Below are positions 6,506 to 59,699 of a DNA stretch of 64,000 nucleotides, one piece after another. The notes under the pieces were generated by a model. It made no database searches. It saw only the letters and a list, made by a program, of their open reading frames with translations, and had not been told where the DNA came from. How positions within the stretch are numbered: position 1 is the stretch's first letter; the number at the start of each line of letters is the position of its first letter. A program made the translations under genes and the position numbers. Origin of the DNA: Patescibacteria group bacterium (lineage in GTDB: Bacteria > Patescibacteriota > Patescibacteriia > UBA1558 > GWA2-36-10); assembly GCA_018819405.1 (NCBI GenBank), contig JAHJQF010000001.1, positions 513,377 through 577,376 of the forward strand. The letters are read 5' to 3'.

Positions 6506-6541
6506 GCCCCGTAAAAAATTTGTTATAATAATAAACGGGGC
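6506..6541. repeat. GCCCCGT...ACGGGGC palindrome (sister of the CCCGTTA element family)
   Basis: 7-bp inverted repeat GCCCCGT/ACGGGGC around a 22-nt AT spacer containing TATAAT, between tmk and gatB. Confidence 0.5.
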
Positions 6542-6571
6542 AATAAATAATTCTTAAATTTTTATACTGGG

Positions 6572-9743: not shown

Positions 9744-10208
9744 ATGGCCGTAATTATCAATTATCCGGTAGTAGAAAAGCCGGCACCTCACTTTGAGGGC
9801 AATGCTGTAGGTAATGCCCTTTGGAATCTGCTACAACTGGAGCAGGAAGGACACATATTGCCGGAGCTGCAGTTCCATCTGCAAGGAGGGAGGGTTTTGA
9901 CCCGCATGAAATTGGTGTCCAGCCAGTGTAAGGTGGATGAATGTACTGGTCATGTCACGGTTGTGGCTCGGGCGGCTACTTCCTGTCACTGCCCCTGCAG
10001 TCTGCAGAGGCTTCACTTCGTCCCGGACAACGGGGTGGCTATCGAACACGATGGTTTGATTGTGGCGATGACAGTGGGCTACCCCAGCTGGGAAGCCTGG
10101 ACAGTCATTGAGAATACTCACCTCAAGATCAGGAAGACATTCAAGCCGGATGGCAGCGTCGAGACCGAGGACCTCAATTCCAAACAGCCCAAGGATAAGG
10201 TAGGCTAG
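9744..10208 (+). CDS. hypothetical protein in a GC-rich island
   Basis: 154-aa ORF of about 55% GC in a genome of about 35% GC. Strong GGAAGGGG ribosome-binding site 7 nt upstream. No recognizable family. A 96-aa antisense ORF at 9831-10121 is probably an artefact of the high GC. Confidence 0.45.
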   Translation: MAVIINYPVVEKPAPHFEGNAVGNALWNLLQLEQEGHILPELQFHLQGGRVLTRMKLVSSQCKVDECTGHVTVVARAATSCHCPCSLQRLHFVPDNGVAIEHDGLIVAMTVGYPSWEAWTVIENTHLKIRKTFKPDGSVETEDLNSKQPKDKVG

Positions 10209-13646: not shown

Positions 13647-13679
13647 GATTTTTTAATTTTAATATTTAGTCGTTTTTTA

Positions 13680-13771
13680 CCCAGTTAGAAATTATAGAAA
13701 AATATTTTTACAAATAATAATATTTTATTCTGGTTTATAATTGTGAATTTCTAACTGGGTTTATTATAGCA
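13680..13771. repeat. palindromic intergenic element, variant TIR CCCAGTTAGAAATT / AATTTCTAACTGGG
   Basis: Inverted repeats at 13680-13693 and 13746-13759. The tail tctaactgggtttattatagca recurs as a 22-mer at 19427-19448. Confidence 0.65.
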
Positions 13772-17047: not shown

Positions 17048-17054
17048 ATTTTTA

Positions 17055-17104
17055 CCCCGTTAAATGTTCGCCCCGCGAACACTGCAAAGCAGTATTTAAC
17101 GGGG
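17055..17104. repeat. CCCCGTTAAAT / ATTTAACGGGG palindrome with an inner GTTCGC/GCGAAC hairpin
   Basis: Lies between the thrS start and the leader terminator. Same TIR type as the elements at 22921, 35871 and 46736/47005. Confidence 0.6.
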
Positions 17105-17398
17105 TGAAAATTAAAATAACCCAAGACTAGTTAAGTCTTGGGACCCTGAGTGACTCCTAAGGAGTCAAACGGGCGGTTCCACCCAAGTTCCTCCTATAAA
17201 AGGAGGCAACTCATTTATTTTATTGAGATTTAGTCCCTGTTTTGAGGGATTCCATATGCTGGAAGAATAGTTGGTTGCTATTCCAATCATCTAAGGCGTT
17301 TATAATTATAGCTCATTTTAATATTTGTTGTAAACTATTGACAAAATAGTAAATACATGATATACTTAGATATTATTTTGAACTTTAAATTAGGTCAA
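17105..17398 (-). promoter_or_regulatory. putative T-box riboswitch leader of thrS (promoter, stem I, T-box, terminator)
   Basis: The minus strand reads GGAGGAACTTGGGTGGAACCGCCCG, matching the T-box core GGGUGGNACCGC. It is followed by the terminator CCCAAGACTTAACTAGTCTTGGG and a T-run. AACTTGGG of the T-box can pair with the 5' arm of the terminator as an antiterminator. A TTGACC-17-TAATAT promoter lies at 17370-17398 on the minus strand. A candidate ACC specifier sits in the loop CAACCAA. Confidence 0.5.
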
Positions 17399-19470: not shown

Positions 19471-22400
19471 TCAATTAGTTTTTAATTTCCAGCTATTTGG
19501 CCCTAAAAATTTATTTATTTTTTCTTTTAGTTTTTCATCCGGTAGCACTTTAAGGTCGGTTTTTAACTTGCGTATATGGCCATTATGTATTTCCAGATAA
19601 ACTGGGCTAAGTCCGGGATGTTGGTCCAATATTTTTTTGAGCTCAGCCATTTTATCTTTATCAAAACCTTCGGGTAAAACTAGCCAAAGCTTTTTTTCAG
19701 ACAATCCTTTGGCTTTAAAATCTTTGATTGTTTCTGGGTTTATAATTTCTGCTCTTTCGGCAATCACCTTGGGGTGGCCGTCTTTTTCAGAGACCTTGCC
19801 TTCTACCAAAACTCTATTTTCGTCTTTCCATAGATTGAAAGTAGTTTCCAACATGGAAGGGAAGACAATCACTTCAATACTAGAGCTGGAATCTTCTATA
19901 GTGACAAAGAGCATAGCCTGACCTTTGTGAGTGACTATTTTGTGAACAAAAGTAATAATACCAGCTACTCGGACATTGTTTCCGTCTTTGTTTTTTAATT
20001 TATCCAACGGGATAATATATTTTTTGAGTATTTCCAGATCGTTTTTGAAAGGGTGGTCGGATATATAAAGACCCATTAGCTCTTTTTCCCAAGAAAGTTT
20101 AGTATTTTGGTCTATATCATCAAAGTGTTCTAGTTTGAGGGAAAAAGTGGTATTAGCTAGTGGTAAATCGGCAAACAAATTATTTTGTCCGCTTTTATGT
20201 TCATTTTGTATTTTTTTGTTAAATTCCAAAATAGTAATCAAATTTCCCAAAGCTTGTCCGCGATTAGATAATGAATCTAAGGCGCCGGCTTTTATTAGGC
20301 TTTCGAGTGATTTTTTGTTTAGATCCTTATCTTTTATCCTAGAGAGAAAATCCTCCAGAGATTTGTACTGACCGTTCTTTTTTCTTTCAGAGATTATGAC
20401 TTTGGCAATATTGTGTCCAACATTTTTAATAGCATTTAGCCCAAAACGAATTTTTCCTTTTTTGTTTGGATCAGTACTTTCTACCACTGAAAAATTAGAA
20501 AAACTTTCATTGACATCAGGCGGTAAGACATCTATATCCATTTTGCGACATTCTTTTATTTCAATAGTGACCCTGTCAATATTGTCTTGGTCGGCTGTCA
20601 AAAGGGCGGCCATAAAAGCCTCTGGATAGTTAGCTTTTAAATAGGCAGTTTGATAGGCAATCATGGCGTAGCAGGCAGCGTGTGATCTGTTAAAACCATA
20701 TCTGGCAAAAGGCACAATAAATTCCCATATTTTGTTGGCAGTTTTTTTGTCTACGCCGTTATCTATCAAGCCTGATACTACTTTTTCCTCCTGCTCATCG
20801 AGCAGTTCTTTTATTTTTTTACCTACCGCTTTTCTTAATACATCAGCCTGACCGTAGCTAAAACCAGCTAGGTCTCTGACAATTCTCATCAATTGTTCCT
20901 GATATACCGCAATACCATAGGTATTTTTTAGGATCGGTTCCAACTTGGGATGCAAGTAGTTTACTTTTTTTAATCCATGTTTGGCGGCAATAAAATCTGG
21001 GATAAACTCCATCGGTCCTGGGCGGTATAGGGCGACCATAGCAATGATATCTTCTAGCTCAGTTGGTTTGAGCTGTTTGAGGTATCTTTTCATGCCACCG
21101 GATTCTAGTTGGAATACGCCGGTGGTTTCACCTTTTTGGAAAAGATCAAAGGTTTTTTGGTCATCAAGTGGCAAATGATCTATATTAATTTTGGTATTTT
21201 TGGTAGCTTCTACTATCTCGATAGTTTGTTCTAAGATGGTCAGATTTTTGAGGCCCAAAAAATCCATTTTGAGTAAGCCCAGGTCTTCAACTGGGTGCAT
21301 AGAGTATTGGGATATAATAGTTTTATCGTCACCGGAGGCATATTGCAAAGGGGTGTAGTTTGTCAGTGGCTCTTTGGTGATTAGTACGGCACAGGCGTGG
21401 GTAGAGGAGTGGCGAGCTAGACCTTCTAGTTTTTTGGCCATGTCCAATAGTCTTTGTGCTTCAGGATCTTCTTCATATATTCTTTTTAGATCATCGACAT
21501 TGGCCAAAGCTTCCTCCAGAGAAGTAAACATTGGAATCATTTTGGCCAGTTGGTCGCAGTAGCCATAACTATAACCCATCACACGTCCTACGTCTCTGAC
21601 AGCTGCTCGAGCAGCCATAGTACCAAAAGTTATGATTTGGGCTACGTGATCTTTGCCATACTTTTCTTCAACATAGCGGATTACTTCTTCACGTCTGATA
21701 TCGGCAAAATCAAGATCAATATCAGGCATGGATATACGTTCTGGGTTGAGGAATCTTTCAAAAATAAGCTCATACTTGATGGGGTCGATATTGGTGATAT
21801 TTATCAGGTAAGATACCAGCGATCCAGCAGCTGATCCACGACCTGGGCCGACTACTATCTTTTGTTCTTTGGCCCAATTGACAAAATCTTGCACTATCAA
21901 AAAGTAGGCCGCAAAACCAGTCTTAGTTATGATAGAGAGCTCATAATCCAATCTTTCTTTGATATTGGTCGGGATTTGGTCTATCTCGTATCCGTAGCGT
22001 TTTTTTACGCCCAAGAGGCATAATTGTTTTAGCTCTTCCTCGGCACTGTTAGCATTTTGTAACTGGTATTCAGGCAATTGAATAGTGCCCAACTCTATTT
22101 CTATATTGCAACGGTCAGCTAATTTTTGAGTGTTATCAATTGCGGTTTGTATTTCGTCGCCAAATAATTCTTTGACTTTATTTTCAGAAATCATAGAGAA
22201 ATCGTCTCCTAGGTATGACATCCTATCTTCATCCGACTGCTTATGCTTTGTTTGTATACAGAGTAATATATCTTGGGCTTCATTATCATCAGAATTTATG
22301 TAGTGGACATCATTGGTGATAATAAGGGGTATATTATGTTGCTTGGAAATTTTTTTGTATTCTTCATTGACTATTTCTTGTTCACTATCATTTCGGTGTT

Positions 22401-22914
22401 GTAATTCCAAATATAAATGATCATTTCCAAAAATATCTAAGAGTGTCTTGAGATTTTCTTGGACAGTCTGGTGTTGTCCGGCTTTGATGTGGCGAGCCAA
22501 TGGTCCACCTAGACAGGCTGTGGCGGCTATTAATCCTTCTTTGTGTTTTTTTAATATTTCCCAATCTATTCTTGGTTTATAATAAAAACCTTCCAGATGA
22601 GCAATGGTAGTCAATTTGAGAAGGTTTTTGTATCCTTGGTTGTTTTCTGCCAAGAGAATAAGATGATATGGTTTTTCTTTGTGGTTTCTGTCGGATATTG
22701 AACCAGGGGCAACATAACATTCAACACCGATGATCGGTTTTATGCCACTAGCCAGACATTTTTGATAAAATTCTATAGCTCCATACATAACACCATGATC
22801 AGTCAGAGCCAAAGCATTGACTGCCTGCTCTTTAGCCTTTTTTACTAGTTGGTCTATAGTACTCAAGCCATCAAGTAGGCTGTAATGAGAGTGATTATGG
22901 AGGTGAATAAGCAT
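19471..22914 (-). CDS. dnaE: DNA polymerase III alpha subunit
   Basis: N-terminal PHP domain HLHNHSHYSLLDG, polymerase core and OB fold. 1147 aa. Confidence 0.95.
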   Translation of the reverse strand: MLIHLHNHSHYSLLDGLSTIDQLVKKAKEQAVNALALTDHGVMYGAIEFYQKCLASGIKPIIGVECYVAPGSISDRNHKEKPYHLILLAENNQGYKNLLKLTTIAHLEGFYYKPRIDWEILKKHKEGLIAATACLGGPLARHIKAGQHQTVQENLKTLLDIFGNDHLYLELQHRNDSEQEIVNEEYKKISKQHNIPLIITNDVHYINSDDNEAQDILLCIQTKHKQSDEDRMSYLGDDFSMISENKVKELFGDEIQTAIDNTQKLADRCNIEIELGTIQLPEYQLQNANSAEEELKQLCLLGVKKRYGYEIDQIPTNIKERLDYELSIITKTGFAAYFLIVQDFVNWAKEQKIVVGPGRGSAAGSLVSYLINITNIDPIKYELIFERFLNPERISMPDIDLDFADIRREEVIRYVEEKYGKDHVAQIITFGTMAARAAVRDVGRVMGYSYGYCDQLAKMIPMFTSLEEALANVDDLKRIYEEDPEAQRLLDMAKKLEGLARHSSTHACAVLITKEPLTNYTPLQYASGDDKTIISQYSMHPVEDLGLLKMDFLGLKNLTILEQTIEIVEATKNTKINIDHLPLDDQKTFDLFQKGETTGVFQLESGGMKRYLKQLKPTELEDIIAMVALYRPGPMEFIPDFIAAKHGLKKVNYLHPKLEPILKNTYGIAVYQEQLMRIVRDLAGFSYGQADVLRKAVGKKIKELLDEQEEKVVSGLIDNGVDKKTANKIWEFIVPFARYGFNRSHAACYAMIAYQTAYLKANYPEAFMAALLTADQDNIDRVTIEIKECRKMDIDVLPPDVNESFSNFSVVESTDPNKKGKIRFGLNAIKNVGHNIAKVIISERKKNGQYKSLEDFLSRIKDKDLNKKSLESLIKAGALDSLSNRGQALGNLITILEFNKKIQNEHKSGQNNLFADLPLANTTFSLKLEHFDDIDQNTKLSWEKELMGLYISDHPFKNDLEILKKYIIPLDKLKNKDGNNVRVAGIITFVHKIVTHKGQAMLFVTIEDSSSSIEVIVFPSMLETTFNLWKDENRVLVEGKVSEKDGHPKVIAERAEIINPETIKDFKAKGLSEKKLWLVLPEGFDKDKMAELKKILDQHPGLSPVYLEIHNGHIRKLKTDLKVLPDEKLKEKINKFLGPNSWKLKTN

Positions 22915-22920
22915 AATTTG

Positions 22921-22956
22921 TTTTTACCCCGTTAAGTCCCGCTTTTCGGGATTTAA
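22921..22956. repeat. CCCGTTAA...TTAACGGG palindrome upstream of dnaE
   Basis: ccccgttaagtcccgcttttcgggatttaacggg is a nested hairpin. The minus strand reads TAACGGGGTAAAAACAAATTATG into dnaE. Confidence 0.6.
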
Positions 22957-23127
22957 CGGGAGTAAATATTTAATGGGATGAATAATAAAACCCGATAACA
23001 CTCGTTAGGGAGATTAAAATTTATCGGGATGTTGATTTATAAAAAATAAATCAAATAATTTGTTTTTGTTTTTGTTTGCCCGAGCGATTTGTGGTGAGCG
23101 TAATTGAATTAAATCGAGGGGTTTTTA

Positions 23128-35645: not shown

Positions 35646-35870
35646 GGTTTGTCTCCTTGAGTCAGGGTTTTAGCAGATGCGGAGGGTACAGAAGGTGTTG
35701 ATGTCTTCCGGAAAAGTAACCTATGTTTTTACCCCTTATCTTATGCGGATGTAAAATAACTTTAACTAGTATATATAAACTAATTTTGTCTTTTTTGTCA
35801 ATGATGTATTTAGGCCTTGCTTTTTTTGAATTTTTATGTTAAATTAATGTCTGTTTAATTTTAATTCACC

Positions 35871-35930
35871 CCGTTAAATCCCCAACGGGCTAATCCGCTA
35901 GGCGGATTATTTAACGGGGTCAACAAGTAT
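35871..35930. repeat. CCCCGTTAAAT / ATTTAACGGGG palindrome with an inner TAATCCGC/GCGGATTA hairpin
   Basis: Upstream of rpsB. Same TIR type as 17055 and 46736. Confidence 0.6.
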
Positions 35931-38369: not shown

Positions 38370-39254
38370 GTGAAAGTAGTCAAAATACAATTTCATAGAT
38401 TAGACAAAGAATATTTTTTTCTGCCTGAATTTAGCGATGACAGTTCCGATATACAGGTAGGGGATTTTGTAGTAGTAGATACTAGTCTTGGTCAAGATAT
38501 AGGTCAGATTACCGGTTGGGATGAATTTGAATCAAGAGCCAAGGATAATAGTGAAGATAATTCCAAAAATACTCCTCAGCTTGTCCAAAATAGCATATCA
38601 GATGTCAAACAAATGACCAGAAAAGCTACGGAAAAAGATCTGCAAGATTGGGAAAATATAAAAGATTTATATCATAAATATTTGACAGAGTGCCGTGAAC
38701 TTTGTCGCAAGCTTGGACTCAAAGAAATGAAGCTCATAGATGCAGCCGAGTCTTTTGATAGAAAAAGATTGACTTTTTATTTTGTGTCTGATTCCAGAGT
38801 TGATTTTCGTGATTTGGTCAAAGAGCTGGTTAGGATTTATCATAAAAAGATTAGGTTACAGCAAGTTGGAGTGCGTGATGCCACCAAAATCTGTGGAGGT
38901 TTTGGGCCTTGTGGTCTGCCTTTGTGTTGCAGCTTGTGGCTAGAAGATGTCGGCAATGTATCTCCGGATTTTATAAAAGATCAGGAGCTTAGTCATCGTG
39001 GGGCTGACCGTCTGACTGGTCCTTGTGGCCGACTCAAATGTTGCTTGCGTTTTGAAGAAGAGGCTTATAAATACAATTTGGAAAAAATGCCAAAGGAAGG
39101 GGACATTATTAAAACTGGTGCTGGGAGAGGCAGAGTAGTATCTGTCCATCCTATGAAGCATACCGTGGAGTTGGAGATTGATGGGGCTCGTGTGGAGTAT
39201 CCTTACCTAGAAGGTAAGTTATGTGAAAAGAGTTGTTCTGAATCAGAAAGGTAA
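38370..39254 (+). CDS. PSP1 C-terminal domain protein (RicT/YaaT-like)
   Basis: The Cys-rich GGFGPCGLPLCCSLW...GPCGRLKCCLRFE is typical of the PSP1 domain. GTG start inside AACGGGGTG, 8 nt after the pyrH stop. It occupies the slot where frr usually sits. Confidence 0.65.
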   Translation: MKVVKIQFHRLDKEYFFLPEFSDDSSDIQVGDFVVVDTSLGQDIGQITGWDEFESRAKDNSEDNSKNTPQLVQNSISDVKQMTRKATEKDLQDWENIKDLYHKYLTECRELCRKLGLKEMKLIDAAESFDRKRLTFYFVSDSRVDFRDLVKELVRIYHKKIRLQQVGVRDATKICGGFGPCGLPLCCSLWLEDVGNVSPDFIKDQELSHRGADRLTGPCGRLKCCLRFEEEAYKYNLEKMPKEGDIIKTGAGRGRVVSVHPMKHTVELEIDGARVEYPYLEGKLCEKSCSESER

Positions 39255-39277
39255 TTTTTATTTTTAGATATAAAAGG

Positions 39278-39304
39278 TCGTTAGTCAAATAATGACTTTT
39301 TTGT
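39278..39304 (+). terminator. weak hairpin terminator
   Basis: agtca aataa tgact followed by tttttt. Confidence 0.4.
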
Positions 39305-39445
39305 TATAATATAAGCAAGTTGAAAGTTTCAAGCTGAAAGTTATAAAGTAGTTTAGTTAATTAGTTTTCCTATTAATATTTAATTATTCTAAAAACTTTT
39401 TATTAATTTGAACTTTTGATTTTTTAACTTTTTAAACTAATTTAT

Positions 39446-40453
39446 ATGGTAAAAAAGAAAATTCGTGTCGCTATCAATGGTTTTGGCCGTATTGGTCGGG
39501 CGGCTTTTAAGATTATATTATCTAGCAACAAATATGAAGTAGTAGCTATAAATGATTTGGCCTCAGCCGAGAGTTTGGCCTACCTTCTCAAATACGATAC
39601 AGTCTATGGGCGATATGATAAAAAAGTTTTAGCCAAGGGTAATGATATTTATGTAAATGGTAAAAAATATCAGATTACAGCCGAACCTGAACCAAAAAAA
39701 TTACCATGGAAAAAGATGAGAATTGATGTAGTATTGGAATGCACCGGGCGTTTTGTCAAAGATGGATTAGCAGCTGATCATATCAAAGCGGGTGCCAAAA
39801 AAGTGATTATCTCAGCACCGGCCAAAGGTGGAGGAGTGGATACATTCCTTTTGGGCGTCAATGAAAATAATTACAAAAATCAAAAAGTCATTTCCAATGC
39901 CTCTTGTACGACCAATTGTATTGCCCCAGTCGCTCAGATTATGGTCAGCAAATTTGGTGTGGAAAAAGCCATGATGACTACAATTCATTCATATACTGCC
40001 GATCAGAGCTTGGTTGATTCTCCACACAAAAAAGATGTGCGCCGAGGCAGAAGTGCTGCCCAAAATATTGTCCCGACTTCCACTGGTGCGGCAATTGCCA
40101 CTGGTCTAGTTGTGCCAGAACTAGCGGGTCTTTTTGATGGTCTGTCACTGCGTGTGCCAACACCTGTTGTTTCACTTTCAGATTTTACTTTTGTGCTCAA
40201 AAAAAATGTCACTGTCAAGCAGGTCAATGATGCTTTGACCAAGGCTAGTCAGTCCAAGCAGTACAAAGGCATACTGGGCGTGACTGATGAGCCAGTTGTT
40301 TCTTCTGATTTTATAGGGGACAAGCGTTCATCTATAGTGGATCTCAATCTTACTCAGGTAGTAGGTGGCAATATGGTCAAAGTAATTGCCTGGTATGACA
40401 ACGAATGGGGATACTCCAATCGTTTGGTAGAAATGATAGGTCAAATGAAATAA
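39446..40453 (+). CDS. gap: glyceraldehyde-3-phosphate dehydrogenase
   Basis: INGFGRIGR NAD motif and the catalytic SCTTNC. Confidence 0.9.
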   Translation: MVKKKIRVAINGFGRIGRAAFKIILSSNKYEVVAINDLASAESLAYLLKYDTVYGRYDKKVLAKGNDIYVNGKKYQITAEPEPKKLPWKKMRIDVVLECTGRFVKDGLAADHIKAGAKKVIISAPAKGGGVDTFLLGVNENNYKNQKVISNASCTTNCIAPVAQIMVSKFGVEKAMMTTIHSYTADQSLVDSPHKKDVRRGRSAAQNIVPTSTGAAIATGLVVPELAGLFDGLSLRVPTPVVSLSDFTFVLKKNVTVKQVNDALTKASQSKQYKGILGVTDEPVVSSDFIGDKRSSIVDLNLTQVVGGNMVKVIAWYDNEWGYSNRLVEMIGQMK

Positions 40454-42381: not shown

Positions 42382-42453
42382 CCCCCGTTGGTCCAATTGG
42401 ACAGGACACCTGCCAGTCAGGTAATATAGGTTCAAATCCTATACGGGGTACCA
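42382..42453 (+). tRNA. degenerate tRNA-like element (T-arm + acceptor + CCA, abnormal D/anticodon arms)
   Basis: Good T-arm ATAGG-TTCAAAT-CCTAT and a 3' acceptor ACGGGGT-A-CCA. The D region is the perfect palindrome GTCCAATTGGAC and the anticodon arm folds with a 5-nt loop. Either a tRNA pseudogene or an unusual tRNA. Confidence 0.3.
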
Positions 42454-42540: not shown

Positions 42541-42633
42541 CACTATCGTCTGGGGAGACATCAATCGGACAGAGCGCTCCGTTCGTTCGGAAAGCGTTGT
42601 CGGTTCGAGTCTGACAGTGTCCTTCTCAGCGAT

Positions 42634-42692
42634 GGGGAGGGGGTTGAGTCTTGCGCTTGTGGCAAGACAATTCCCCCTCCTTTTTCTTTTTG
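42634..42692 (+). terminator. rho-independent terminator of the tRNA cluster
   Basis: ggggaggggg...ccccctcc with a nested gtcttgc/gcaagac hairpin, followed by tttttctttttg. Confidence 0.7.
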
Positions 42693-42789
42693 TTTAAAAA
42701 ATAAAATCATTGACAAAAACCCTTAAAATTACTATATTAAATTATACGACGGCGCATATTTGCTGACGGCTAAAATTTTTTTTATAAAT

Positions 42790-42861
42790 CCCGTTAGAAA
42801 TTCACGAGATTTTATCGGGAGATAGTAAATAAAAAATAATTTAACTATAATTTCTAACGGG
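42790..42861. repeat. palindromic element (TIR CCCGTTAGAAATT / AATTTCTAACGGG)
   Basis: Near-identical to the copy at 58361-58439, including the shared 31-mer taatttaactataatttctaacgggatgaat. The right end supplies the ATG of the gene at 42862. Confidence 0.75.
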
Positions 42862-44259
42862 ATGAATTTATCAACATTATTATTACTTTTGGTATATATA
42901 GTAAACGTAGGTCTTTTAGTATATGTTTTGTTTTCCAAAAATAAAAAAAAAGGCTGGCCGTTTTTTTGGATGTTGCTTTTGTTGATTTTATGGCAGAGTA
43001 CAGAATTATTTAGTATTATATATTTTGTTGACAAAGGAGAAACCCTTCTTCTTTTTGCTGTCAGAGCCGGGCTTTTGCCGACTCTTTATCTAGCGCCAGC
43101 TTTTTTGTGGCTGGTTTTTTCTTTGTTTGATAAATGGCAGACTTTCAAACCATGGCGCAAATTTTTGTATTTTCTACCGGCTATTATTATGTCGCCTTTT
43201 GCGTTTACAGATTTTAATACCAGTCAGGTAGTATTTGAGGATGAGAGGATATATTATGTTGGCGGGCCGATTTATTGGTTTTTTGCTGCCTACTTTATCA
43301 TATTGATGAGTTATGGCATGTATTTTTTGATCAAAAACAGAAAACAAGCCAAGGCTATAGTCAGGCGGCAAATAGATTATATTTTTATAGGGACTTTTTT
43401 GACAGCTGCTTGCGGATTGATATTTAACATATTATTGCCAATATTTGGTCTGAACAACTTATATTATCTGGGTGTAAATAGCACTATATTTTTTACAGCT
43501 ATTCTTACTTATGCACTTTTTAGGTATAGATTCTTTGATTTGTATATTTCTTTTTATCGTTTACTGATTGATTTTGTGCGTTTATTTTTTACAGGTTTGA
43601 TCTTTTATATTCTTTATATTTTGCTTTTTGATGTAGCAGATTTGGATTTTTCAGTGACTAGCAATGTCTTGTTGTTTTTGGTTATGATTGCTCTAGTTGG
43701 GCCATTTTTGTTTCGCTTGATAAATAAATTTTTTGTAGCTTATCTGGTCTATCCGGAAAATGACATCAAAAATTCAGAAAACAAAATTGCCGATATTTTG
43801 CGCTCCAGTCGTGATCTGGATGTTTTATTTTCACGTTTGGCTAGAGAGATAAGTAAAATAGTGGACTATCAGGACATTTATTTTTTTCTTTCCAAAAGAA
43901 AAAATGTCGATATGTTTTATCAGGTATTTCCGGTAGGCGAGAGACTGATGAGCAAGACAAATAGTGAGATGCTTTCTTATCTTGCTCGCAAACGAGAAGT
44001 TATAAATAAGGCAGAATTAGAATATATAGGCGCTGAGAAAAGCCTGCTGTCAGAATTGTCCGAAAAGCAAGTAGATCTGGTGTTGCCCATTTTTTATAAT
44101 CGTCAGCTTTTGGGAGCAATACTTATAAATAACAACAATGGTCTGGTATCTATCCAAAAAATACATTTTCTAAAACAGCTAAATAAATATCTAGACATTG
44201 CTATTGGTAGTCTGCTCTTGCATCAACAGGATATGGCGGAAAACAGTCCAAAAGTTTAA
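42862..44259 (+). CDS. 7TM membrane sensor protein (His-kinase-type 7TM N-domain + cytoplasmic domain)
   Basis: 465 aa. The N-terminal multi-TM region is similar to those of 44353, 45048 and the kinase at 51398. The C-terminal soluble domain may be GAF-like. Confidence 0.5.
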   Translation: MNLSTLLLLLVYIVNVGLLVYVLFSKNKKKGWPFFWMLLLLILWQSTELFSIIYFVDKGETLLLFAVRAGLLPTLYLAPAFLWLVFSLFDKWQTFKPWRKFLYFLPAIIMSPFAFTDFNTSQVVFEDERIYYVGGPIYWFFAAYFIILMSYGMYFLIKNRKQAKAIVRRQIDYIFIGTFLTAACGLIFNILLPIFGLNNLYYLGVNSTIFFTAILTYALFRYRFFDLYISFYRLLIDFVRLFFTGLIFYILYILLFDVADLDFSVTSNVLLFLVMIALVGPFLFRLINKFFVAYLVYPENDIKNSENKIADILRSSRDLDVLFSRLAREISKIVDYQDIYFFLSKRKNVDMFYQVFPVGERLMSKTNSEMLSYLARKREVINKAELEYIGAEKSLLSELSEKQVDLVLPIFYNRQLLGAILINNNNGLVSIQKIHFLKQLNKYLDIAIGSLLLHQQDMAENSPKV

Positions 44260-44352
44260 AGTTGAAAAGTATTAACATATAAAATTTGCGTAATTTTTAA
44301 TAATATGGTTATATAATTTGTTCAACTTTTAATTTTTTAACTTACTAACGGG

Positions 44353-45749: not shown

Positions 45750-46742
45750 ATGGCCAAAGCAAATAAAAAAATATATTTACTCTTAGCTGGCGGTACTTGT
45801 ATTTTGGATAAAGATAGCCGTATTTTTGCAATTAATGAAAAAAAAGACATTGATTATTGGTTTGATTTAATGCCAGAGCTGCGTATTTTGGCTGACATAG
45901 AAACAGTTTTGATTTCTAGCGAAGACCAAGTAGTAGACACTAGTGTCTGGCAGAAAATTGCCAAGAGTATTGTAGACAGAGAAAAATCAGCCGATGGTTT
46001 TGTAGTAGTGACAAAAATAGACCAACTTGTCAACACCTCTTTAGCAATTAATTTTTTGTTGCAGAATTTTAAAAAGTCTATTATTTTTACCAGTTCCCAA
46101 GTCAGCGGCAGTAGTTTTGTAGACAAAAAAGAAGTAATAAATAAACTAAAATCAAAACACGGTGGGTTAGGCCTAAGGACCAATTTGATAAACGCTATTC
46201 AAATTGCTTGTGAGCCTCTTCCACAGACAGCTGTTTTGTTTGGTACTAGGTTAATCGCTTCTACCAAAGCAATAGTAGATCTTCAGGATAGTATAAACAA
46301 TTTTATCAGTGTGGAAGGTAATTATTTAGCCAAAATTGATTTTGGTATAAATTTGAAATCGGGACTCAAATATTCCACCAAAAAAACAGAGATTTATCCC
46401 AGTATGTCAGCCAAAGTTTTGGCAATCTATGATATCCCAGGTATTGATTGGCAGTTTGAGCAAACTGATATGGCTAAATACGACGGGCTATTTATCAAAA
46501 TATCTCCCTTTCAAAACCTTGAAAATGTCAAAATAAAAAAAATAAATAATTGGAAAATACCGACAGTAATTTTTAATTCACGATATGTACCAGTTGTAAA
46601 AGGAGCGGTATCTGTATCAGGTTGTACTTTTAACTCAGCTCTTATCAAAACTATTTGGGCCTTGTCAAACAAAAAGAAACTACCAGATTTTGAAAATGTG
46701 ATGAAGCAAAATATAATTGGTGAGTTTAATTCACCCCGTTAA
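45750..46742 (+). CDS. asparaginase/glutaminase-family protein (putative)
   Basis: N-terminal IYLLLAGGTCIL resembles the TGGTIAG threonine motif of L-asparaginases. About 330 aa. The C-terminal SPR* is encoded by the palindromic element. Confidence 0.4.
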   Translation: MAKANKKIYLLLAGGTCILDKDSRIFAINEKKDIDYWFDLMPELRILADIETVLISSEDQVVDTSVWQKIAKSIVDREKSADGFVVVTKIDQLVNTSLAINFLLQNFKKSIIFTSSQVSGSSFVDKKEVINKLKSKHGGLGLRTNLINAIQIACEPLPQTAVLFGTRLIASTKAIVDLQDSINNFISVEGNYLAKIDFGINLKSGLKYSTKKTEIYPSMSAKVLAIYDIPGIDWQFEQTDMAKYDGLFIKISPFQNLENVKIKKINNWKIPTVIFNSRYVPVVKGAVSVSGCTFNSALIKTIWALSNKKKLPDFENVMKQNIIGEFNSPR

Positions 46743-46760
46743 ATAAATTTAAATCATAAT

Positions 46761-47018
46761 ATGAATCATTATGTATATATATTAAAAAGTAAGAAAGATA
46801 ATAACTTCTATGTAGGTTATACTAAAGATTTAAATTTAAGATTTAAGCAACACCAAGAAGCTAAAGTAGAATCAACTAAAAACAGAAGACCATTAAATTT
46901 GATATATTATGAATGTTGTTTAAATCAACAAGATGCTACTAAGAGAGAAAAATATTTAAAAACATATCTTGGTAGATATTATATCAAGAAAAGGCTTAAA
47001 TCTTATTTAACGGGGTAA
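46761..47018 (+). CDS. GIY-YIG nuclease family protein (85 aa)
   Basis: YVYILKS...NFYVGYTKDLNLRFKQH is a GIY-YIG motif. The gene is flanked by CCCCGTTAAAT (46736-46746) and ATTTAACGGGG (47005-47015), and its stop lies in the right repeat. Confidence 0.7.
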   Translation: MNHYVYILKSKKDNNFYVGYTKDLNLRFKQHQEAKVESTKNRRPLNLIYYECCLNQQDATKREKYLKTYLGRYYIKKRLKSYLTG

Positions 47019-47020
47019 AT

Positions 47021-47581
47021 ATGAAAATTTATTTTTATACCAATCAGGAGCTAAATAACACTGACGCCAAAGAAATTATCAATCACTTGAGGCGGGCAGA
47101 TATTGAGGTCATTAGTAGCTTGAGTAGCTCTTCAGATACGCAACTTGAAAGAGTGGATGCTTTTGTTTTTCAGGGACAAAAATTTGATACTAAGGCTGGA
47201 TATTTGACAGCTCTAGCTTTGGCGCAGAGCAAAGAGGTGCTTTGTCTTTTGCCTAGTGGTAGCAAAATTGATAGCTCGTTGGCCAGCCTGAGAGATAATA
47301 GGAATTTGGCCAAGCATTTATTGGTAGAATTTTATACTGATAGTGACTTGTCAGATAAACTGGAAAAATTTTTGACCAAATTGGACAAAAAAACTATCCG
47401 GGATTTGTTTAATATCAAATATACTTTGAGAGTATCGGGCAAGATAAATGATTATCTCAATTGGAAAGCCAGAGAAAAATCTGTCAAAAAAGCCGACTGG
47501 ATAAGGGACAACATACAGGATTTGATGAAAAATGATGAGAAATATCAGGATTTTTTAAAAAATAAATTTAAGGCTGGCTAA
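47021..47581 (+). CDS. hypothetical protein (possible nucleoside 2-deoxyribosyltransferase-like N-domain)
   Basis: ADIEVIS...DAFVFQGQKFDTKAGYLTALALAQSKEVLCLLP loosely resembles the NDT/Rcl fold. Low confidence. Confidence 0.3.
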   Translation: MKIYFYTNQELNNTDAKEIINHLRRADIEVISSLSSSSDTQLERVDAFVFQGQKFDTKAGYLTALALAQSKEVLCLLPSGSKIDSSLASLRDNRNLAKHLLVEFYTDSDLSDKLEKFLTKLDKKTIRDLFNIKYTLRVSGKINDYLNWKAREKSVKKADWIRDNIQDLMKNDEKYQDFLKNKFKAG

Positions 47582-56479: not shown

Positions 56480-57550
56480 ATGAAAGAAATAATAGTAGTA
56501 AAAGTTGGTACAAATACCCTGACCGCCAATGGCTCAAATCTAAATAATGATTTGATAGCTAATTTGGTAAAACAACTGGCAAAACTCCATGAACAGGGTT
56601 ACCAGGTTGTTTTGGTAACTTCAGGGGCAGTAGCGGCTGGCAAGGAGGCACTGTATTTATCAAATGGTGATAATACGATTGTAAAGAGGCAGGTTTATGC
56701 TTCGGTTGGTCAGGCTCGGTTGATGCACAAGTATGAGAATTTTTTTGCCGAGCACGGGCTCAATATCGGCCAGGCACTACTGACTCATGATGATTTTTGT
56801 CATAGAGCCCGATATGATAATGCCTTACAAACTCTTCATGGATTATTAGACAGTGGAATCATCCCTGTTATTAATGAAAATGATGTAGTAACTATTAATG
56901 AATTATCATTTGGGGACAACGATGTCTTGGCCGCTACCACAGCAATAGCCATAGGGGCTAGCAAACTAATTTTTTTGACAAATCAAGAAGGTGTGATGAC
57001 AGATAATCCAAATAAAAATTCAGACGCCAGATTGATAGACAAGGTAGAGGATGCTAAAGAAATTTTTTCTGTAATATCGGATGGTCTGCCTTCTTCTGGC
57101 GGTATAGGAGGCATGTTTTCCAAAGTCAATGCTGCCAGGATTGCAACCAGTGCGGGAGTAGCCACCTGGGTTGCCAGTGGTCTGAGACCGGCCAATATAA
57201 GTGATATTGTACAGGGTAAAAAAATAGGTACATATTTTGTACCAAAAAAAACTACTTTGACAGCTAAGTCTAGATGGATTCTTTGTGCCAAGAATGCTTC
57301 CACAGGTGTTTATGTAGATGCCGGAGCAGTCAAAGCTTTGACTGACAGAAAAAGTCTTTTGATGGTAGGTATTCATAAAATTAAAGGATTTTTTGAAGCC
57401 AAGCAGATAATAGAAGTAATAGATGATACTGATCGTATAGTGGGATATGGGGTAGTAAATTATGACTCAGAAAGCTTAAAAGCAGCCTTGGACAACCCCA
57501 GATCTTTGGATAAAGAAATAATACATGCAGATAATTTTAGACTAATATGA
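56480..57550 (+). CDS. proB: glutamate 5-kinase
   Basis: VVKVGTN...LVTSGAVAAG amino-acid-kinase fold plus a C-terminal PUA domain. Confidence 0.9.
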   Translation: MKEIIVVKVGTNTLTANGSNLNNDLIANLVKQLAKLHEQGYQVVLVTSGAVAAGKEALYLSNGDNTIVKRQVYASVGQARLMHKYENFFAEHGLNIGQALLTHDDFCHRARYDNALQTLHGLLDSGIIPVINENDVVTINELSFGDNDVLAATTAIAIGASKLIFLTNQEGVMTDNPNKNSDARLIDKVEDAKEIFSVISDGLPSSGGIGGMFSKVNAARIATSAGVATWVASGLRPANISDIVQGKKIGTYFVPKKTTLTAKSRWILCAKNASTGVYVDAGAVKALTDRKSLLMVGIHKIKGFFEAKQIIEVIDDTDRIVGYGVVNYDSESLKAALDNPRSLDKEIIHADNFRLI

Positions 57551-58368
57551 AAAAAAATAAAAAAATTTTAGTAGTCGGCTGCGGCAATATGGGACAAGCG
57601 ATAATCAGTCAGCTTTTGGATTGCAGATTTAGCTCCCGAAAATATTTAGCTGGTTTTGATAAAGCAAAAAATAGAGCAAAAGTAAGGGGGCTGTATGATA
57701 TAGATATGGTCGGTGATCTTAATAAAGCTATAGACAATGCTGACATTATTATTTTTTCTATAAAGCCACAACAGTTTAATGATATAGCAAAACAAATAAA
57801 AGGACGATTAAAACCAAATCAATTAGTAGTTTCTATTATGGCCGGTATTTCCTATAAACATATTAGTCAAAGTATAAAGCATAAAAAAGTAGTGCGAGCC
57901 ATGCCCAATTTGGCATTACAGGTCGGGCATAGTGTCACGGCTTGGTATACTCCTAGGGCATTTGTTAAAAGTGTCAAAAGTACTACCAATAGTCTATTGT
58001 CTGTTTTCGGGGCAGTTCTAGAAGTAAAAAAAGAAGATATGATAGACAAGGTGACAGCCATTAGTGGTTCCGGGCCAGCTTATTTCTTTTTTACAGCCGA
58101 GGCCTTAGAAAGTGTTGCTTTAGATTTTGGTTTCAACAAAAGACAGGCAGCTATGTTAGCCAAAGATACTTTCATTGGGGCAGCCAAGCTAGCACAGGTA
58201 GATAAGAGAGATAATAAAAAGTTGCGTCAAGCAGTCACTTCCAAAGGCGGCACTACCGAAGCAGCTATTAGAGAAATAAGTACAGATTTTTTATCTATGT
58301 GGCGTCGAGCTCTAAAAGCAGCTCATCAAAGGGCAAAAGTAATTTCCAAGAAATATGAATCCCGTTAG
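57547..58368 (+). CDS. proC: pyrroline-5-carboxylate reductase
   Basis: ILVVGCGNMGQAI Rossmann motif. P5CR length. The stop is supplied by the palindromic element. Confidence 0.8.
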   Translation: MKKNKKILVVGCGNMGQAIISQLLDCRFSSRKYLAGFDKAKNRAKVRGLYDIDMVGDLNKAIDNADIIIFSIKPQQFNDIAKQIKGRLKPNQLVVSIMAGISYKHISQSIKHKKVVRAMPNLALQVGHSVTAWYTPRAFVKSVKSTTNSLLSVFGAVLEVKKEDMIDKVTAISGSGPAYFFFTAEALESVALDFGFNKRQAAMLAKDTFIGAAKLAQVDKRDNKKLRQAVTSKGGTTEAAIREISTDFLSMWRRALKAAHQRAKVISKKYESR

Positions 58369-58439
58369 AAATTCACAAAATTCTGACAGGATATAATAGT
58401 AAATAATTAATATATAATTTAACTATAATTTCTAACGGG
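58361..58439. repeat. palindromic element (TIR CCCGTTAGAAATT / AATTTCTAACGGG)
   Basis: The left end gives the proC stop and the right end gives the proA ATG. Near-identical to 42790-42861. Confidence 0.75.
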
Positions 58440-59699
58440 ATGAATAAAGATATTATCATTATTGGAAAGAGAGCTAAGGATGCTTCTCGGGAATTTGCTA
58501 CTGCAAGTAGTCAGCAAAAAAATGCGTTGCTGACTACTCTGGCATCTATGATAGCCTTTTATAAAAAGCAAATTCTTGATGCCAACAAAAAAGATCTATC
58601 AAATTATGTTAAAGATCATCCATTTTTTGATCGTCTAATGCTCAATGATTAGCGTCTGGATGAAATTAGACGTAGTTTGTTGGCTGTAGCCAAATTGCCT
58701 GATCCAATAGGAGAAATATCAGATGAAAAACGTCGTCCTAGCGGTATAGTAGTGTCCCGTATGAGAGTGCCTTTGGGTGTATTGGGAGTTATTTATGAAG
58801 CTAGACCAAATGTGACTATAGAGATTTCTAGTTTGGGGCTCAAATCGGGTAATGCTATTGTACTCAAGGGTGGTAAAGAAGCTATAAATAGTAATCAGAT
58901 TTTGGTAAAGATTATCCAAAAAGCCTTGGTCAAAAATGGATTTTCTAAATATACTGTTCAGCTTATCGGCACAAATCAGCGTAGTTTGGTGGCTGATATG
59001 ATAAGGATGAATAAATATATAGATGTTATAGTCCCTCGTGGAGGCAGGAGACTGATTGATTTTGTCAGAGACAATGCCTCGGTGCCTGTGATTGAGACCG
59101 GAGCAGGAGTTTGCCATACTTATGTAGAAAAAAGTGCTGATTTGAAAAAAGCCGTAAGGATTGTGGTGAATGCCAAGACCCAGCGGCCAAGTGTCTGTAA
59201 TGCTTTGGATACTTTGGTACTAGACAGTCAGATTGCCAAAAAGTTTTTGGCGTTATTGTCAGAGGAGCTGTCAAAGCACAGTGTGTTACTGCGCGCCGAT
59301 TCGGTCAGCTATTATATATTAAAAAAATATTATCCCAACAGTTTATTAAAAAAAGCTAAATTGTCAGATTTTAGCAAAGAATTTTTGGGTTTGGAGATGT
59401 CTATCAAAACAGTCAATAATGCTAAACAAGCTATGGATTTTATACAAGAGTATAGTTCGGGACATTCAGAAGCAATTTTGACCAAAAATGCCAAACTGGG
59501 ACAAATTTTTTTGAGGACAATTGATGCCGCAGCAGTCTATGTTAATACTTCCACTCGTTTTACAGATGGTTTTGAATTTGGTCTGGGTGCTGAAGTAGGT
59601 ATTTCTACTCAAAAATTGCACGCCAGAGGTCCTATGGGTCTCAAGGCGCTTACTAGTATGAAGTGGATTGTAAATAGTGATTGGAAGGGCAGGAAATAA
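58440..59699 (+). pseudogene. proA: gamma-glutamyl phosphate reductase interrupted by one in-frame TAG (codon 71)
   Basis: ORFs 58440-58652 and 58677-59699 are in the same frame and together span full-length ProA. They are separated only by TAG at 58650-58652. There are no other lesions. Confidence 0.5.

Follow-up and report, generated by a model that had tools for sequence, protein, structure and literature searches.

A short GIY-YIG nuclease gene in a Patescibacteria group bacterium lies between inverted repeats, and similar palindromes occur elsewhere in the same 64-kb stretch of DNA (the window, which is the whole stretch analyzed). The locus raises the question of whether gene and repeats form one unit, whether the palindromes without a gene belong to it, and whether the unit moves. 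We addressed these points using the window, 79 full-length homologous loci, and gene-less copies from metagenomes.

The nuclease gene and its flanking repeats

The nuclease gene (46761-47018, plus strand) encodes 85 amino acids forming a single domain (Pfam PF01541, E 7.8e-17, 61.8 bits with a cutoff of 22.6). The protein has the conserved Tyr, Tyr-x-Gly, Arg, His, and Glu of the GIY-YIG superfamily, and the residues Y6, Y17, G19, R27, H31, E51, and E63 were invariant across 22 diverse members. A total of 2736 homologues were found, with identities typically of 70-80%, and 107 of 120 homologues ended in KSYLTG. The NCBIfam search of the nuclease gave no family above the cutoff, and exact-sequence look-ups of the window nuclease and P0001 matched no record.

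The inverted repeat consists of ACCCCGTTAAAT (46733-46744) and ATTTAACGGGGT (47005-47016), with 11-nt arms CCCCGTTAAAT at 46734-46744 and ATTTAACGGGG at 47005-47015. A sequence-only reading of this DNA had already described inverted repeats around the 85-aa gene, which holds, while its left arm (46736-46746) was placed 2 nt off. An independent repeat search returned 25-nt arms (46729-46753 and 46996-47020) that were 84% complementary and 242 nt apart. The arm 11-mer occurred nine times in the window when one mismatch was allowed; shuffled sequences are expected to hold 1.2, and none of 100 shuffles reached nine. The element core, ACCC...GGGT, spans 284 nt (46733-47016, plus strand) between the flanks TTC (46730-46732) and AAA (47017-47019), and it is the only full copy in the window. 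Across the homologous loci, the core measured about 284-290 bp, and the identical arm type flanked the gene in 79 of 79. The repeat belongs to the nuclease gene family.

Both arms reach into genes, as the sequence-only reading had noticed. The upstream gene (45750-46742; Pfam Asparaginase N-terminal, E 6e-18) ends in NSPR, and its TAA (46740-46742) lies in the left arm. The last four codons of the nuclease (Y L T G) and its stop codon fall within the right arm, whose GGGG precedes the start codon of the following gene (ATG at 47021) by 6-9 nt.

Nuclease and arms were found together in Patescibacteria, Desulfobacterota, Bacteroidota, and Brocadiaceae. The copies in other phyla, including that in the isolate genome NaphS2, showed 67-75% protein identity. 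The ORF was intact in 78 of the 79 loci, with an in-frame stop in L076 only; part of this conservation could stem from constraint on the nucleic acid, not on protein function. An independent study predicts the transfer of GIY-YIG genes out of Patescibacteria (PMC12455944).

A three-way junction overlapping the coding sequence

The sequence-only reading took the locus for a simple unit bounded by terminal inverted repeats. This description was replaced by a conserved junction of three helices that overlaps the coding sequence: as predicted from the aligned copies, each strand of the whole unit can fold as a perfect three-way junction. Helix P1 pairs the left arm TTCACCCCGTTAAAT (46730-46744), containing the TAA of the asparaginase-like gene, with the right arm ATTTAACGGGGTAAA (47005-47019), encoding L-T-G and the stop codon of the nuclease. 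Helix P2' pairs the non-coding leader AAATTTAAATCA (46745-46756), directly after the left arm, with AGATTTAAATTT (46826-46837) within the ORF (about codons 22-27, KDLNL). Both strands of helix P3' are within the ORF, namely AAGATTTAAGC (46838-46848, about codons 26-30, LRFK) and GCTTAAATCTT (46994-47004, about codons 78-81, RLKS). All coordinates refer to the plus strand.

The pairing is kept while the letters change. P1 was 93.6% paired, with changes on both sides in 8 of 15 pairs. P2' showed compensatory changes against the coding strand in 9 of 12 pairs; for example, the leader reads TAGCTTGAGG and the ORF CCTCAAGCTA in Desulfobacterota copies, and TAATTCAATAT and ATATTGAATTA, respectively, in Bacteroidota copies. 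In P3', the column pair 131/283 was GC in 64 sequences and AT in 12, and the column pair 125/289 was AT in 73 and CG in five. Over the three helices, 94.2% of the cells were paired, and 20 of 38 pairs and 163 cells had changed on both sides, a level of covariation reached by none of 500 shuffles. Pairing fell to about 53% when the partner strand was slid by one column. On this comparative evidence, the three-helix structure is under selection. Codon changes, not only synonymous but even non-synonymous ones, are matched by changes in the non-coding leader, and the most conserved peptides of the nuclease (TKNLKLRFEQ and RLKSYLTG) double as helix strands.

The counts of G:T and A:C cells were 50 and 57 for P1, 10 and 10 for P2', and 1 and 19 for P3'. 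As G:T was no commoner than A:C, DNA is favored over RNA as the folded molecule. The structure was also predicted with RNA folding parameters (z -4.7), and an Rfam scan of the window at the gathering threshold returned only three tRNAs and no match to the element.

Gene-less copies in the window and in metagenomes

Seven copies without an ORF were identified in the window, where palindromes occur about once per 8 kb. All copies folded as single-stranded DNA far better than shuffled sequences, with z values of -4.8 to -7.7 for those in the window. The three cargo-less palindromes of the sequence-only reading are real, with core coordinates now set to 17054-17105, 22926-22962, and 35868-35920. 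The copy at 17054-17105, located 7 nt upstream of the start of a minus-strand gene (15293-17047), is a three-way junction of P1 and the hairpins GTTCGC-CCC-GCGAAC and ACTGC-AAA-GCAGT (DNA fold -20.4 kcal/mol, z -7.7). The copy at 22926-22962 has only one internal hairpin, and each arm contains a mismatch (z -6.9); the minus-strand gene 19471-22914 starts 12 nt downstream of it. The third copy (35868-35920) is again a three-way junction (z -5.8), and the extended left end TTTAATTCACCCCGTTAAAT is common to it and the full element.

The other four copies, missed by the sequence-only reading, form a sister subfamily (GTTAGAA) with the compensated arms CCCGTTAGAAATT and AATTTCTAACGGG, and all are co-oriented with the downstream gene. 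At 5028-5135 (plus strand), the left arm provides the TAG stop of the gene 4633-5037, and the next ORF begins with a GTG that is part of the right arm (5134). The copy at 13679-13760 (minus strand) has the orientation of the flanking minus-strand genes. At 42788-42863 (plus strand), the right arm ending in ACGGGATG gives the ATG of the next gene (42862). At 58359-58441 (plus strand), the gene 57547-58368 ends at a TAG (58366-58368) contributed by the left arm.

At least 120 distinct gene-less copies were retrieved from metagenomes. The interiors of 101 of these 120 folded as exactly two hairpins, and their flanks followed the pattern of the full element (TTC|AAA in 34 copies and TTT|GAA in 21). 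At 45-110 bp, the gene-less copies keep P1 and the junction geometry and carry two short GC hairpins in place of the gene. The hairpin loops are mostly of 3 nt (TTT, AAA, TTC, and GAA), a type typical of stable DNA hairpins, and include GCGAAGC, which we take to be an unusually stable DNA mini-hairpin. Loop polarity was unrelated to flank polarity.

Judging by these shared features, the gene-less copies are members of the same family as the full element. Their descent from full elements, proposed by the sequence-only reading, is supported by the shared ends, the three-way-junction plan, and a single intermediate: L077:3391-3531 is an internally deleted full element in which only the six pairing strands are kept and the P2' loop is down to 3 nt, based on three matching segments read by eye. 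The interiors of the window copies were also considered as decayed ORFs, and this was rejected because the alignment scores were not above those of shuffled sequences (5028-5135 was only marginal, at about 2.6 sd).

Insertion sites

The nuclease gene of the window is located between the asparaginase-like gene and a gene for a 186-aa protein, and the same arrangement was found in L002; this site was empty in L010, which has the same gene block with a 20-nt spacer. L010 has a copy upstream of its GAPDH gene, at a site that is empty in the window. Another site was occupied in L012 and empty in L010, and the site of the gene-less copy at 42788-42863 was empty in L002 and L010. Two further insertions were inside genes that are intact elsewhere (L053 compared with L066, and L038 compared with L041, L097, and L007). 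L017, L059, and L055 each had two full copies within 20 kb. The closest relative of the window nuclease (93% amino acid identity, L084) adjoins ligA, and neither ligA nor its other neighbors were present in the 64-kb window. A look-up of the 186-aa neighbor returned only a contig starting inside the nuclease gene, and no strain-level empty site was obtained from it.

Positions of the element differ in related genomes, and empty sites are present, as expected of a transposable element. The loci lacking the insert, which the sequence-only reading had named as a check, amounted to about ten occupied/empty comparisons. A single-copy, syntenic, and universally conserved gene, which it had named as grounds for refutation, was not what we found: sites differ (the window and L002 compared with L010), and some loci have two copies within 20 kb. 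Its description of the enzyme as a homing-type nuclease was not supported, as there are many insertion sites and a scan of 2.9 million IMG/VR viral contigs returned no relative. No intron context was seen.

The elements are placed between T-rich left and A-rich right flanks (TT...AA). Each occupied/empty comparison showed the gain of the core plus 2 nt between TT and AA without duplication; as the empty sites were drawn from diverged genomes (about 70-89% nucleotide identity), the ends of the element can be placed only to within 1-2 nt. The two flanks form an inverted repeat (TTY...RAA) instead of a direct one, and the sequence gained, core plus 2 nt, does not duplicate target bases. At the termini, the outermost nucleotides form a fixed mismatch, C..A or T..G. 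Its polarity varies independently of the orientation of the interior, which would not be predicted by any simple scheme of the cut-and-paste or peel-and-paste kind. A model in which only the core enters a TTC^AAA hexamer was rejected because 2 nt remain unaccounted for in every comparison and the reading frame would be lost in both intragenic cases. A direct 2-nt target duplication was also rejected: even in its Tc1/IS630-type form (TA), it accounts for no more than the rare T..A state.

The elements were very often located at operon stop/start junctions. There, the left arm gives the upstream gene a new stop and the right arm ends a few nucleotides before the next start. In over half of the loci, this start was -4 to +12 nt from the nuclease stop. 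The start-proximal GGG(G) may serve as a putative ribosome-binding site for the next gene.

Comparison with known systems

The closest known system is that of the Ssn nucleases, the cd10448 family, and their NTS/SRM repeats, in which single-domain GIY-YIG enzymes cut only single-stranded DNA, beside hairpin repeats flanking their own genes (Chenal et al. 2025, Nat Commun, PMC11893778). As in Ssn, the enzyme is a single-domain GIY-YIG protein of about 85-95 aa whose members are 70-80% identical across distant taxa, and the gene is bracketed by structured inverted-repeat DNA that is also present as many ORF-less copies. The window shows this architecture, with its 85-aa single-domain protein, arms of a type found in 79 of 79 loci, and seven ORF-less copies. 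The authors of the Ssn study remark that the architecture of gene and repeat resembles an insertion sequence; the presence/absence polymorphism and the TT^AA insertion pattern shown here were not reported in that study (PMC11893778). In Neisseria ssnA, each flank is a separate hairpin outside the gene, whereas here the flanks and the coding sequence form one three-way junction.

The published SRM motif HGTCWYN(0-2)YYVSBRHN(0-5)WNVSBRGN(0-2)RNCYNB had no match on either strand of the 64-kb window, and nine matches were found in 3.2 kb of the N. gonorrhoeae ssnA locus used as the control. The comparison with the SsnA-family alignment (hhalign) gave a probability of 96.7% (E 3e-10, 36% identity over 69 columns). 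Cross-scoring with the SsnA profile gave 37.9 bits for the window protein and 26.5 for YazA; the profile of the window family gave 47.6 bits for B. subtilis YazA and 35 for SsnA. By these profile scores, the window family is no closer to SsnA than to UPF0213. The leaders of N. gonorrhoeae ssnA and of the window both contain ATAAATTTAAAT, with no pairing partner seen by eye in the ssnA ORF; this resemblance is tentative and possibly due to chance or to a promoter.

REP/RAYT units (REPtrons) and the IS200/IS605 family pair a small gene with inverted structured repeats on its two sides and with many ORF-less intergenic copies; folded single-stranded DNA is recognized, and insertion takes place beside a short specific sequence without target duplication. 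The element is similar to REPtrons and to IS200/IS605 "peel and paste" in this layout and in its insertion pattern, and it would share the recognition of folded single-stranded DNA. It differs in that their enzymes are HUH/Y1 transposases, which rejoin DNA through covalent intermediates, whereas its only ORF is a GIY-YIG domain, and we know of no chemistry by which a GIY-YIG hydrolase rejoins DNA. Their hairpins are subterminal and mutually independent, with no junction spanning the gene. Correia elements and Rickettsia palindromic elements are short palindromes at or in genes and can supply stops, starts, and promoters. Our units resemble them in lying in or next to genes and supplying stop or start codons. 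Such gene-end miniature elements derive from insertion sequences with DDE transposases or have no known autonomous partner; we know of no such element with a GIY-YIG partner or with a conserved three-way junction.

The gene-less copies also have the shape of the T-shaped terminal repeat of adeno-associated virus, a long stem closed by two small internal hairpins that is nicked by a site- and structure-specific nuclease. Unlike the element, this virus is a eukaryotic single-stranded DNA virus with an HUH Rep protein; its repeat is at the genome end and does not form a unit of its own, and there is no sequence relationship.

Proposed and alternative explanations

In our reading, to which we give a probability of roughly 55%, the locus is one of the copies of a small mobile element that encodes a GIY-YIG nuclease and has miniature derivatives; it is present mainly in Patescibacteria and also in several other phyla. 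It appears to be a type of bacterial jumping element that has not been described before. The Ssn nucleases serve as the model: the encoded enzyme would recognize the folded single-stranded form and nick at the base of P1, and it would work in trans on the gene-less copies; excision and insertion would be finished by host replication or repair. Both mobilization by the nuclease itself and the chemistry of cleavage and transposition are proposed on this basis. GIY-YIG enzymes hydrolyze DNA, and we know of none that catalyzes strand transfer; therefore, a full transposition pathway would need unspecified host functions. At the present locus, the asparaginase-like gene before the insertion would most simply have read ...GAG TTT AAT TAA T ATG..., and the element would have entered the TTAA made by its stop codon, which would explain the NSPR tail. 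The further claim, which in our estimate falls somewhat short of even odds, is that of a new class of prokaryotic mobile element, in which a unit of single-stranded DNA that folds as a three-way junction and contains its own nuclease gene is moved into TTAA-like sites, with no duplication, by this hydrolytic single-domain GIY-YIG enzyme, spawns abundant T-shaped miniatures, and crosses phyla.

A domesticated, Ssn-like host system is an unlikely rival. The nuclease would then be a host enzyme and the junction repeats its chromosomal recognition sites, marking or restricting single-stranded DNA in natural transformation or recombination, as proposed for SsnA and the NTS in Neisseria; the repeats would have spread in the past, and the system would now be maintained for host benefit. 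Ssn itself is the precedent, as its single-domain GIY-YIG gene likewise lies between structured repeats of its own that also occur as many scattered copies; in the present family, the ORF is intact in nearly all loci. Long persistence is suggested by the site common to the window and L002, whose flanking proteins are no more than 39-55% identical. Against such a system, positions vary among related genomes, some insertions interrupt genes, and two copies occur within 20 kb in some loci. It also lies inside the repeat structure, not beside it, an arrangement needed by a selfish unit and not by a host regulator. The host-system and mobile-element readings are not mutually exclusive. We consider improbable, in either of its forms, an explanation at the RNA level, in which the helices in the mRNA control translation or stability of the nuclease or, as a variant, P1 brings the upstream stop beside the downstream start so that translational coupling in the operon survives the insertion. 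The structure predicted under RNA parameters, the co-orientation of the elements with neighboring genes (all GTTAGAA copies with the downstream gene), and the closeness of the next start to the nuclease stop are in its favor; however, no helix is enriched in G:U over A:C despite 163 compensated cells, the 3-nt loops are those of stable DNA hairpins, and their polarity is unrelated to that of the flanks. Insertion-site polymorphism is unexplained by RNA pairing, and a DNA process is needed anyway.

The gene might instead be an ordinary housekeeping gene of the UPF0213/YazA/YhbQ type that lies by chance between terminator-like palindromes. These proteins are of the same fold family and size, the best solved-structure matches were the UPF0213 proteins BH0048 and EF2693 (1ZG2 and 1YWL), and the family profile scores B. 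subtilis YazA as given above. They lack the KSYLTG C-terminus, and to our knowledge they have no flanking repeats; the genuine yazA of B. subtilis is in a fixed trmNF-yazA-rsmI context, whereas synteny is not conserved here, and the palindromes are without a T-run. The arms, conserved and covarying in 79 loci of several phyla, and the absence of synteny refute this reading, which we consider very improbable. Still less credible is an integron-like gene cassette. The heptamers GTTAAAT and ATTTAAC do fit the attC core consensus strings, GTTRRRY and RYYYAAC; however, their order (GTTAAAT...ATTTAAC) is reversed relative to that of attC (RYYYAAC...GTTRRRY), they form base pairs with one another over the gene, 50-bp units that have no cassette are closed by these arms as well, and no cassette array was seen.

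Implications

If the proposed new class of element is real, it would give bacteria their first DNA transposon driven by a GIY-YIG enzyme and would carry dual coding to an extreme, with protein motifs that are also pairing strands. If the nuclease mobilizes the units, a structure-guided GIY-YIG chemistry of transposition would join those of the DDE, HUH, and serine/tyrosine enzymes that prevail in the field. The question of the Ssn study, whether such a gene and its repeat amount to an insertion sequence, can be tested directly in this family, whose empty sites are clear. New specificities among sequence- and structure-specific single-strand nucleases would be of practical use, a case already made for Ssn. 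The element cleanly shows, in a natural setting, how DNA secondary structure constrains protein sequence, and it accounts for a conspicuous class of palindromes in the very small genomes of Patescibacteria, where these palindromes rewrite the ends and starts of genes.

Nuclease gene and inverted repeats

In the AT-rich window (G+C content of 36%), which is from a Patescibacteria genome, an ORF at 46761-47018 encodes an 85-aa protein consisting of a single GIY-YIG domain (PF01541, E = 7.8e-17). The inverted repeats that a sequence-only reading had placed around this gene are real, although its left coordinates were 2 nt too high: the left arm, ACCCCGTTAAAT, lies at 46733-46744 and the right arm, ATTTAACGGGGT, at 47005-47016, and an independent repeat finder returned 25-nt arms, 84% complementary, around the ORF. 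As that reading had also held, the TAA in the left arm is the stop codon of the upstream asparaginase-like gene, whose product ends in NSPR*, and the right arm consists of the nuclease gene's last four codons plus its stop. Two nucleotides beyond this stop, the next gene begins. The 11-mer of the arm, allowing at most one mismatch, was over-represented in the window (nine matches; 1.2 expected).

More than 2700 homologues of the nuclease were found, typically 70-80% identical, and KSYLTG was the C-terminal end in 107 of the 120 best. Scanning a single genome for each species located 396 loci, 80 of which were fetched. Besides many Patescibacteria lineages, they represent Desulfobacterota (among them the isolate NaphS2), Bacteroidota, and Brocadiaceae. 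A scan of viral contigs yielded no relative. The arms TTYACCCYGTTAAATAA ... TTATTTAACRGGGTRAA were common to all complete copies (79/79). Changes in the arms were matched across them (GTCAAAT/ATTTGAC, GTGAAAT/ATTTCAC, GGTAAAT/ATTTACC, and ATTAAGT/ACTTAAT), and this compensation was kept even where the C-terminal residues of the nuclease change as a result. The repeat belongs to the nuclease gene family. One of the 79 copies (L076) carries an in-frame TAA (AAA GGG TAA) at about alignment column 147 and is probably a pseudogene, all others being intact. A chimeric homologue of 134 aa (P0003), joining residues 1-69 of one member to about 21-85 of another, looks as if two elements had recombined or one had inserted into the other.

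Three-way junction of the full element

The predicted fold of window 46728-47022 comprised the helix of the paired arms (P1) and two further helices, which meet in a junction without any unpaired nucleotide. The non-coding leader directly 3' of the left arm was predicted to pair with codons about 22-26 (P2'), and the codons immediately after this partner with codons 78-81, directly 5' of the right arm (P3'). In the alignment of 79 elements, the leader TAATTTTAAATT is paired with AATTTAAAATTA in the ORF in most Patescibacteria, TAGCTTGAGG with CCTCAAGCTA in Desulfobacterota, via synonymous Leu and Lys codons, and, with a peptide change from NLKL to YIEL, TAATTCAATAT with ATATTGAATTA in Bacteroidota. 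In P3', AGA...TCT is replaced by CGA...TCG in five of six cases. Across the three helices, 94.2% of the alignment cells were paired, and both-sided changes were observed at 20 of 38 pairs (163 cells), which was equalled in 0 of 500 shuffles; sliding the partners by one column left only about 53% paired. The covariation in this alignment is overwhelming. The pairing strands encode exactly the two peptides picked by the locus finder as most conserved, TK[ND]L[KN]LRF[EK] and [KN]RLKSYLTG.

RNA helices this variable normally show an excess of G:T over A:C. The counts of G:T and A:C were 50 and 57 in P1, 10 and 10 in P2', and 1 and 19 in P3'. Because no helix had more G:T than A:C, the data favour base pairing in DNA or one strand having been copied from the other.

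Gene-less relatives

The three cargo-less copies of the same repeat type that had been reported for the window were recovered, at 17054-17105, 22926-22962, and 35868-35920. GC-richer hairpin-forming stretches follow two of them (17106-17180 and 22963-23030, e.g., CCCAAGACTAGTTAAGTCTTGGG and GAGTGACTCCTAAGGAGTCA), for which Rfam gave no match at the gathering threshold. A second subfamily (GTTAGAA), overlooked in the sequence-only reading, has arms CCCGTTAGAAATT / AATTTCTAACGGG that differ in a compensated way and occurs at 5028-5135, 13679-13760 (minus strand), 42788-42863, and 58359-58441. Its solos have a fixed polarity (left arm then ATTCAC; CTATAAT then right arm), and all four window copies are oriented as the downstream gene. 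With TATAAT some 15 nt short of the end and an ATG or GTG in the right arm, these solos may donate a promoter and start codon. Degenerate relatives of the palindrome were observed at further gene junctions, 6507-6571 and 44321-44352 (CCCCGTAAAAAATT...CTGGGGTG; CCCGTTAGTAAGT), with the downstream start codon in or beside the GGGGTG end.

Solos of the window and the fetched loci folded as single-stranded DNA into P1 and two short GC hairpins (z of -5 to -9) without unpaired junction bases. Scanning metagenomes for perfect arms 18-40 nt apart returned at least 124 matches in at least 120 loci, with at least 120 distinct interiors; among the matches listed, 101 of 120 interiors contained exactly two hairpins, and the loops were mostly TTT, AAA, TTC, and GAA. 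Unrelated samples share hairpin modules, such as AATTTCGCC-AAA-GGCGAAATT, which can occupy either position; this argues for common descent and spread. A copy at L077:3391-3531, another fetched locus, retains three segments of the full element nearly unchanged when matched by eye, namely the left arm with leader (28/30 nt), AAAAATTTAAAATTAAGATTTGA (23/23 nt), and the 3' strand of P3' with the right arm (22/25 nt), and its P2' loop is reduced to ATA; it is an intermediate between full element and solo. The suggestion that the solo palindromes are derivatives is supported by the same junction plan without the gene and by this intermediate; the interiors of the window solos had no significant similarity to the ORF. 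Elements adjoining or nested in each other were observed in L016 (about 4350-4385), L048 (about 5695-5730), and L200 (684-789); in L016, ACCCAGTTAAATAATTTCAAAT comes immediately after the stop codon.

Occupied and empty sites

Loci without the insert were found in related genomes. L010, whose gene order matches that of the window over a long range (about 70% nucleotide identity), has an empty site (20-nt spacer) between the asparaginase-like gene and the 186-aa gene, where the window and a second relative, L002, are occupied. Upstream of GAPDH, L010 is occupied and the window (39254-39446) empty, and at a third site, 5' of a gene that starts with ATGGAAAAC, L012 is occupied and L010, about 80% identical to it in nucleotides, empty. 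The solo at window 42788-42863, absent from L002 and L010, lies between a conserved GACGGC-N-GACGGC motif and ATG. A systematic junction search identified insertions within genes intact elsewhere (L053 vs. L066; L038 vs. L041, L097, and L007), and several solo insertions had empty paralogues or orthologues, e.g., L163 vs. six copies in L099. Two copies lie within 20 kb of each other in each of L017, L059, and L055, and the nuclease closest to that of the window (93% amino acid identity) adjoins ligA.

The direct repeat GACGGC-N11-12-GACGGC, just upstream of a 465-aa gene, is conserved in three related genomes (window 42680-42790; L002 6110-6160; L010 14150-14195). It is a possible operator, and the window has a solo between it and the start codon. 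Rfam called a third tRNA at window 42382-42450 without an ARAGORN call, and the stretch after tRNA-Ser (...GGTTCGAGTCTGACAGTGTCC; 42541-42625) resembles a further tRNA-like T-arm called by neither program. L099 contains another, unlike dispersed repeat (CTGCAGAAACGCAAAATGCAGAT...), about 130 bp long and present at least six times in 10.8 kb (1306-1435, 2171-2299, 5173-5300, 5890-6017, 7549-7678, and 9918-10045); one paralogue in L163 carries a solo. In two independent assemblies (L012 and L083, each at position 1), the nuclease gene is interrupted by an assembly break; one of the two is the same strain as the window, from a different data set. Such breaks would fit a repeated or strain-variable segment.

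Insertion site and terminal pair

Outside the core ACCC...GGGT, the left flank is TT (93-100%) followed by Y and the right flank R followed by AA (93-97%). In every comparison, the occupied site minus the core exceeded the empty site by 2 nt in length. In the two intragenic cases, the host frame was restored only by removing Y, core, and R, leaving TT^AA: L053 then reads ATT TTA ACA (EILTA), the same as L066, and L038 reads AAC ATT AAA ATT (NIKI), compared with NIQI in L041. The boundaries are uncertain by 1-2 nt, because some solos fit slightly better with both extra bases on one side (TC + core). The window ancestor is most simply reconstructed as ...GAG TTT AAT TAA T ATG..., in which the T before the stop codon would make TTAA, and insertion there would create the NSPR* tail. 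Insertion at the TTAA of a stop codon also explains why roughly 35 loci have an upstream ORF that ends within the left arm (at +7 or +11) and why, for over half of the loci, the next start codon lies -4 to +12 nt from the nuclease stop.

The Y..R pair was almost never Watson-Crick (C..A 34, T..G 27, T..A 7, and C..G 4; Fisher p = 2e-9), and the same pattern was observed in metagenome solos among the matches listed. As C..A and T..G are mutually reverse complementary, each such element has one TTCA/TGAA and one TTTA/TAAA end, assigned independently of the orientation of the interior. A tree of full elements has at least 34 changes of state, with different states mixed among close relatives; solo loop polarity was RR in 21 and YY in 17. 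This asymmetry could stem from a single nick site per element mobilising one strand only, from arm-to-arm recombination inverting the interior, or from asymmetric processing at integration, all three being possible causes.

Relationship to known systems

Among published systems, the Ssn family comes closest. Its members are GIY-YIG enzymes with a single domain, which bind a hairpin repeat (NTS/SRM) and cut single-stranded DNA on the upstream side of that repeat. Copies of the repeat flank the ssn genes and are dispersed by the hundred, and the authors point out a likeness to insertion sequences and REP/RAYT (PMC11893778). The window protein is 36% identical to Ssn (hhalign probability of 96.7%) and about equally close to UPF0213/YazA and SsnA. 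As a control, we used N. gonorrhoeae ssnA and its flanking NTS copies from NZ_CP119140.1 (L081), a 2.17-Mb chromosome filed as a plasmid in PLSDB; the published SRM pattern had nine matches in this 3.2-kb control and none in the window. The Neisseria repeats form individual hairpins that lie outside the gene, whereas in the window family a single junction is made by both flanks together with the coding sequence. No account of this element family, its junction, or its insertion behaviour emerged from literature searches; one study predicts GIY-YIG gene transfer from Patescibacteria to other bacteria (PMC12455944).

The proposal that the window element is a candidate autonomous member of a palindromic family is supported in substance: it is an autonomous-looking member of a structured palindromic element family with many miniature relatives. 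The analysis shows the covarying structure, the association of gene and repeat, the presence/absence polymorphism, the flank pattern, and the miniature derivatives. We infer that the enzyme recognises the element in its folded single-stranded form and drives its mobility. We rate the gene and its repeats as a variant of the Ssn-type arrangement of a nuclease with cognate structured repeats, and there is a substantial chance that the family represents a new class of mobile element.
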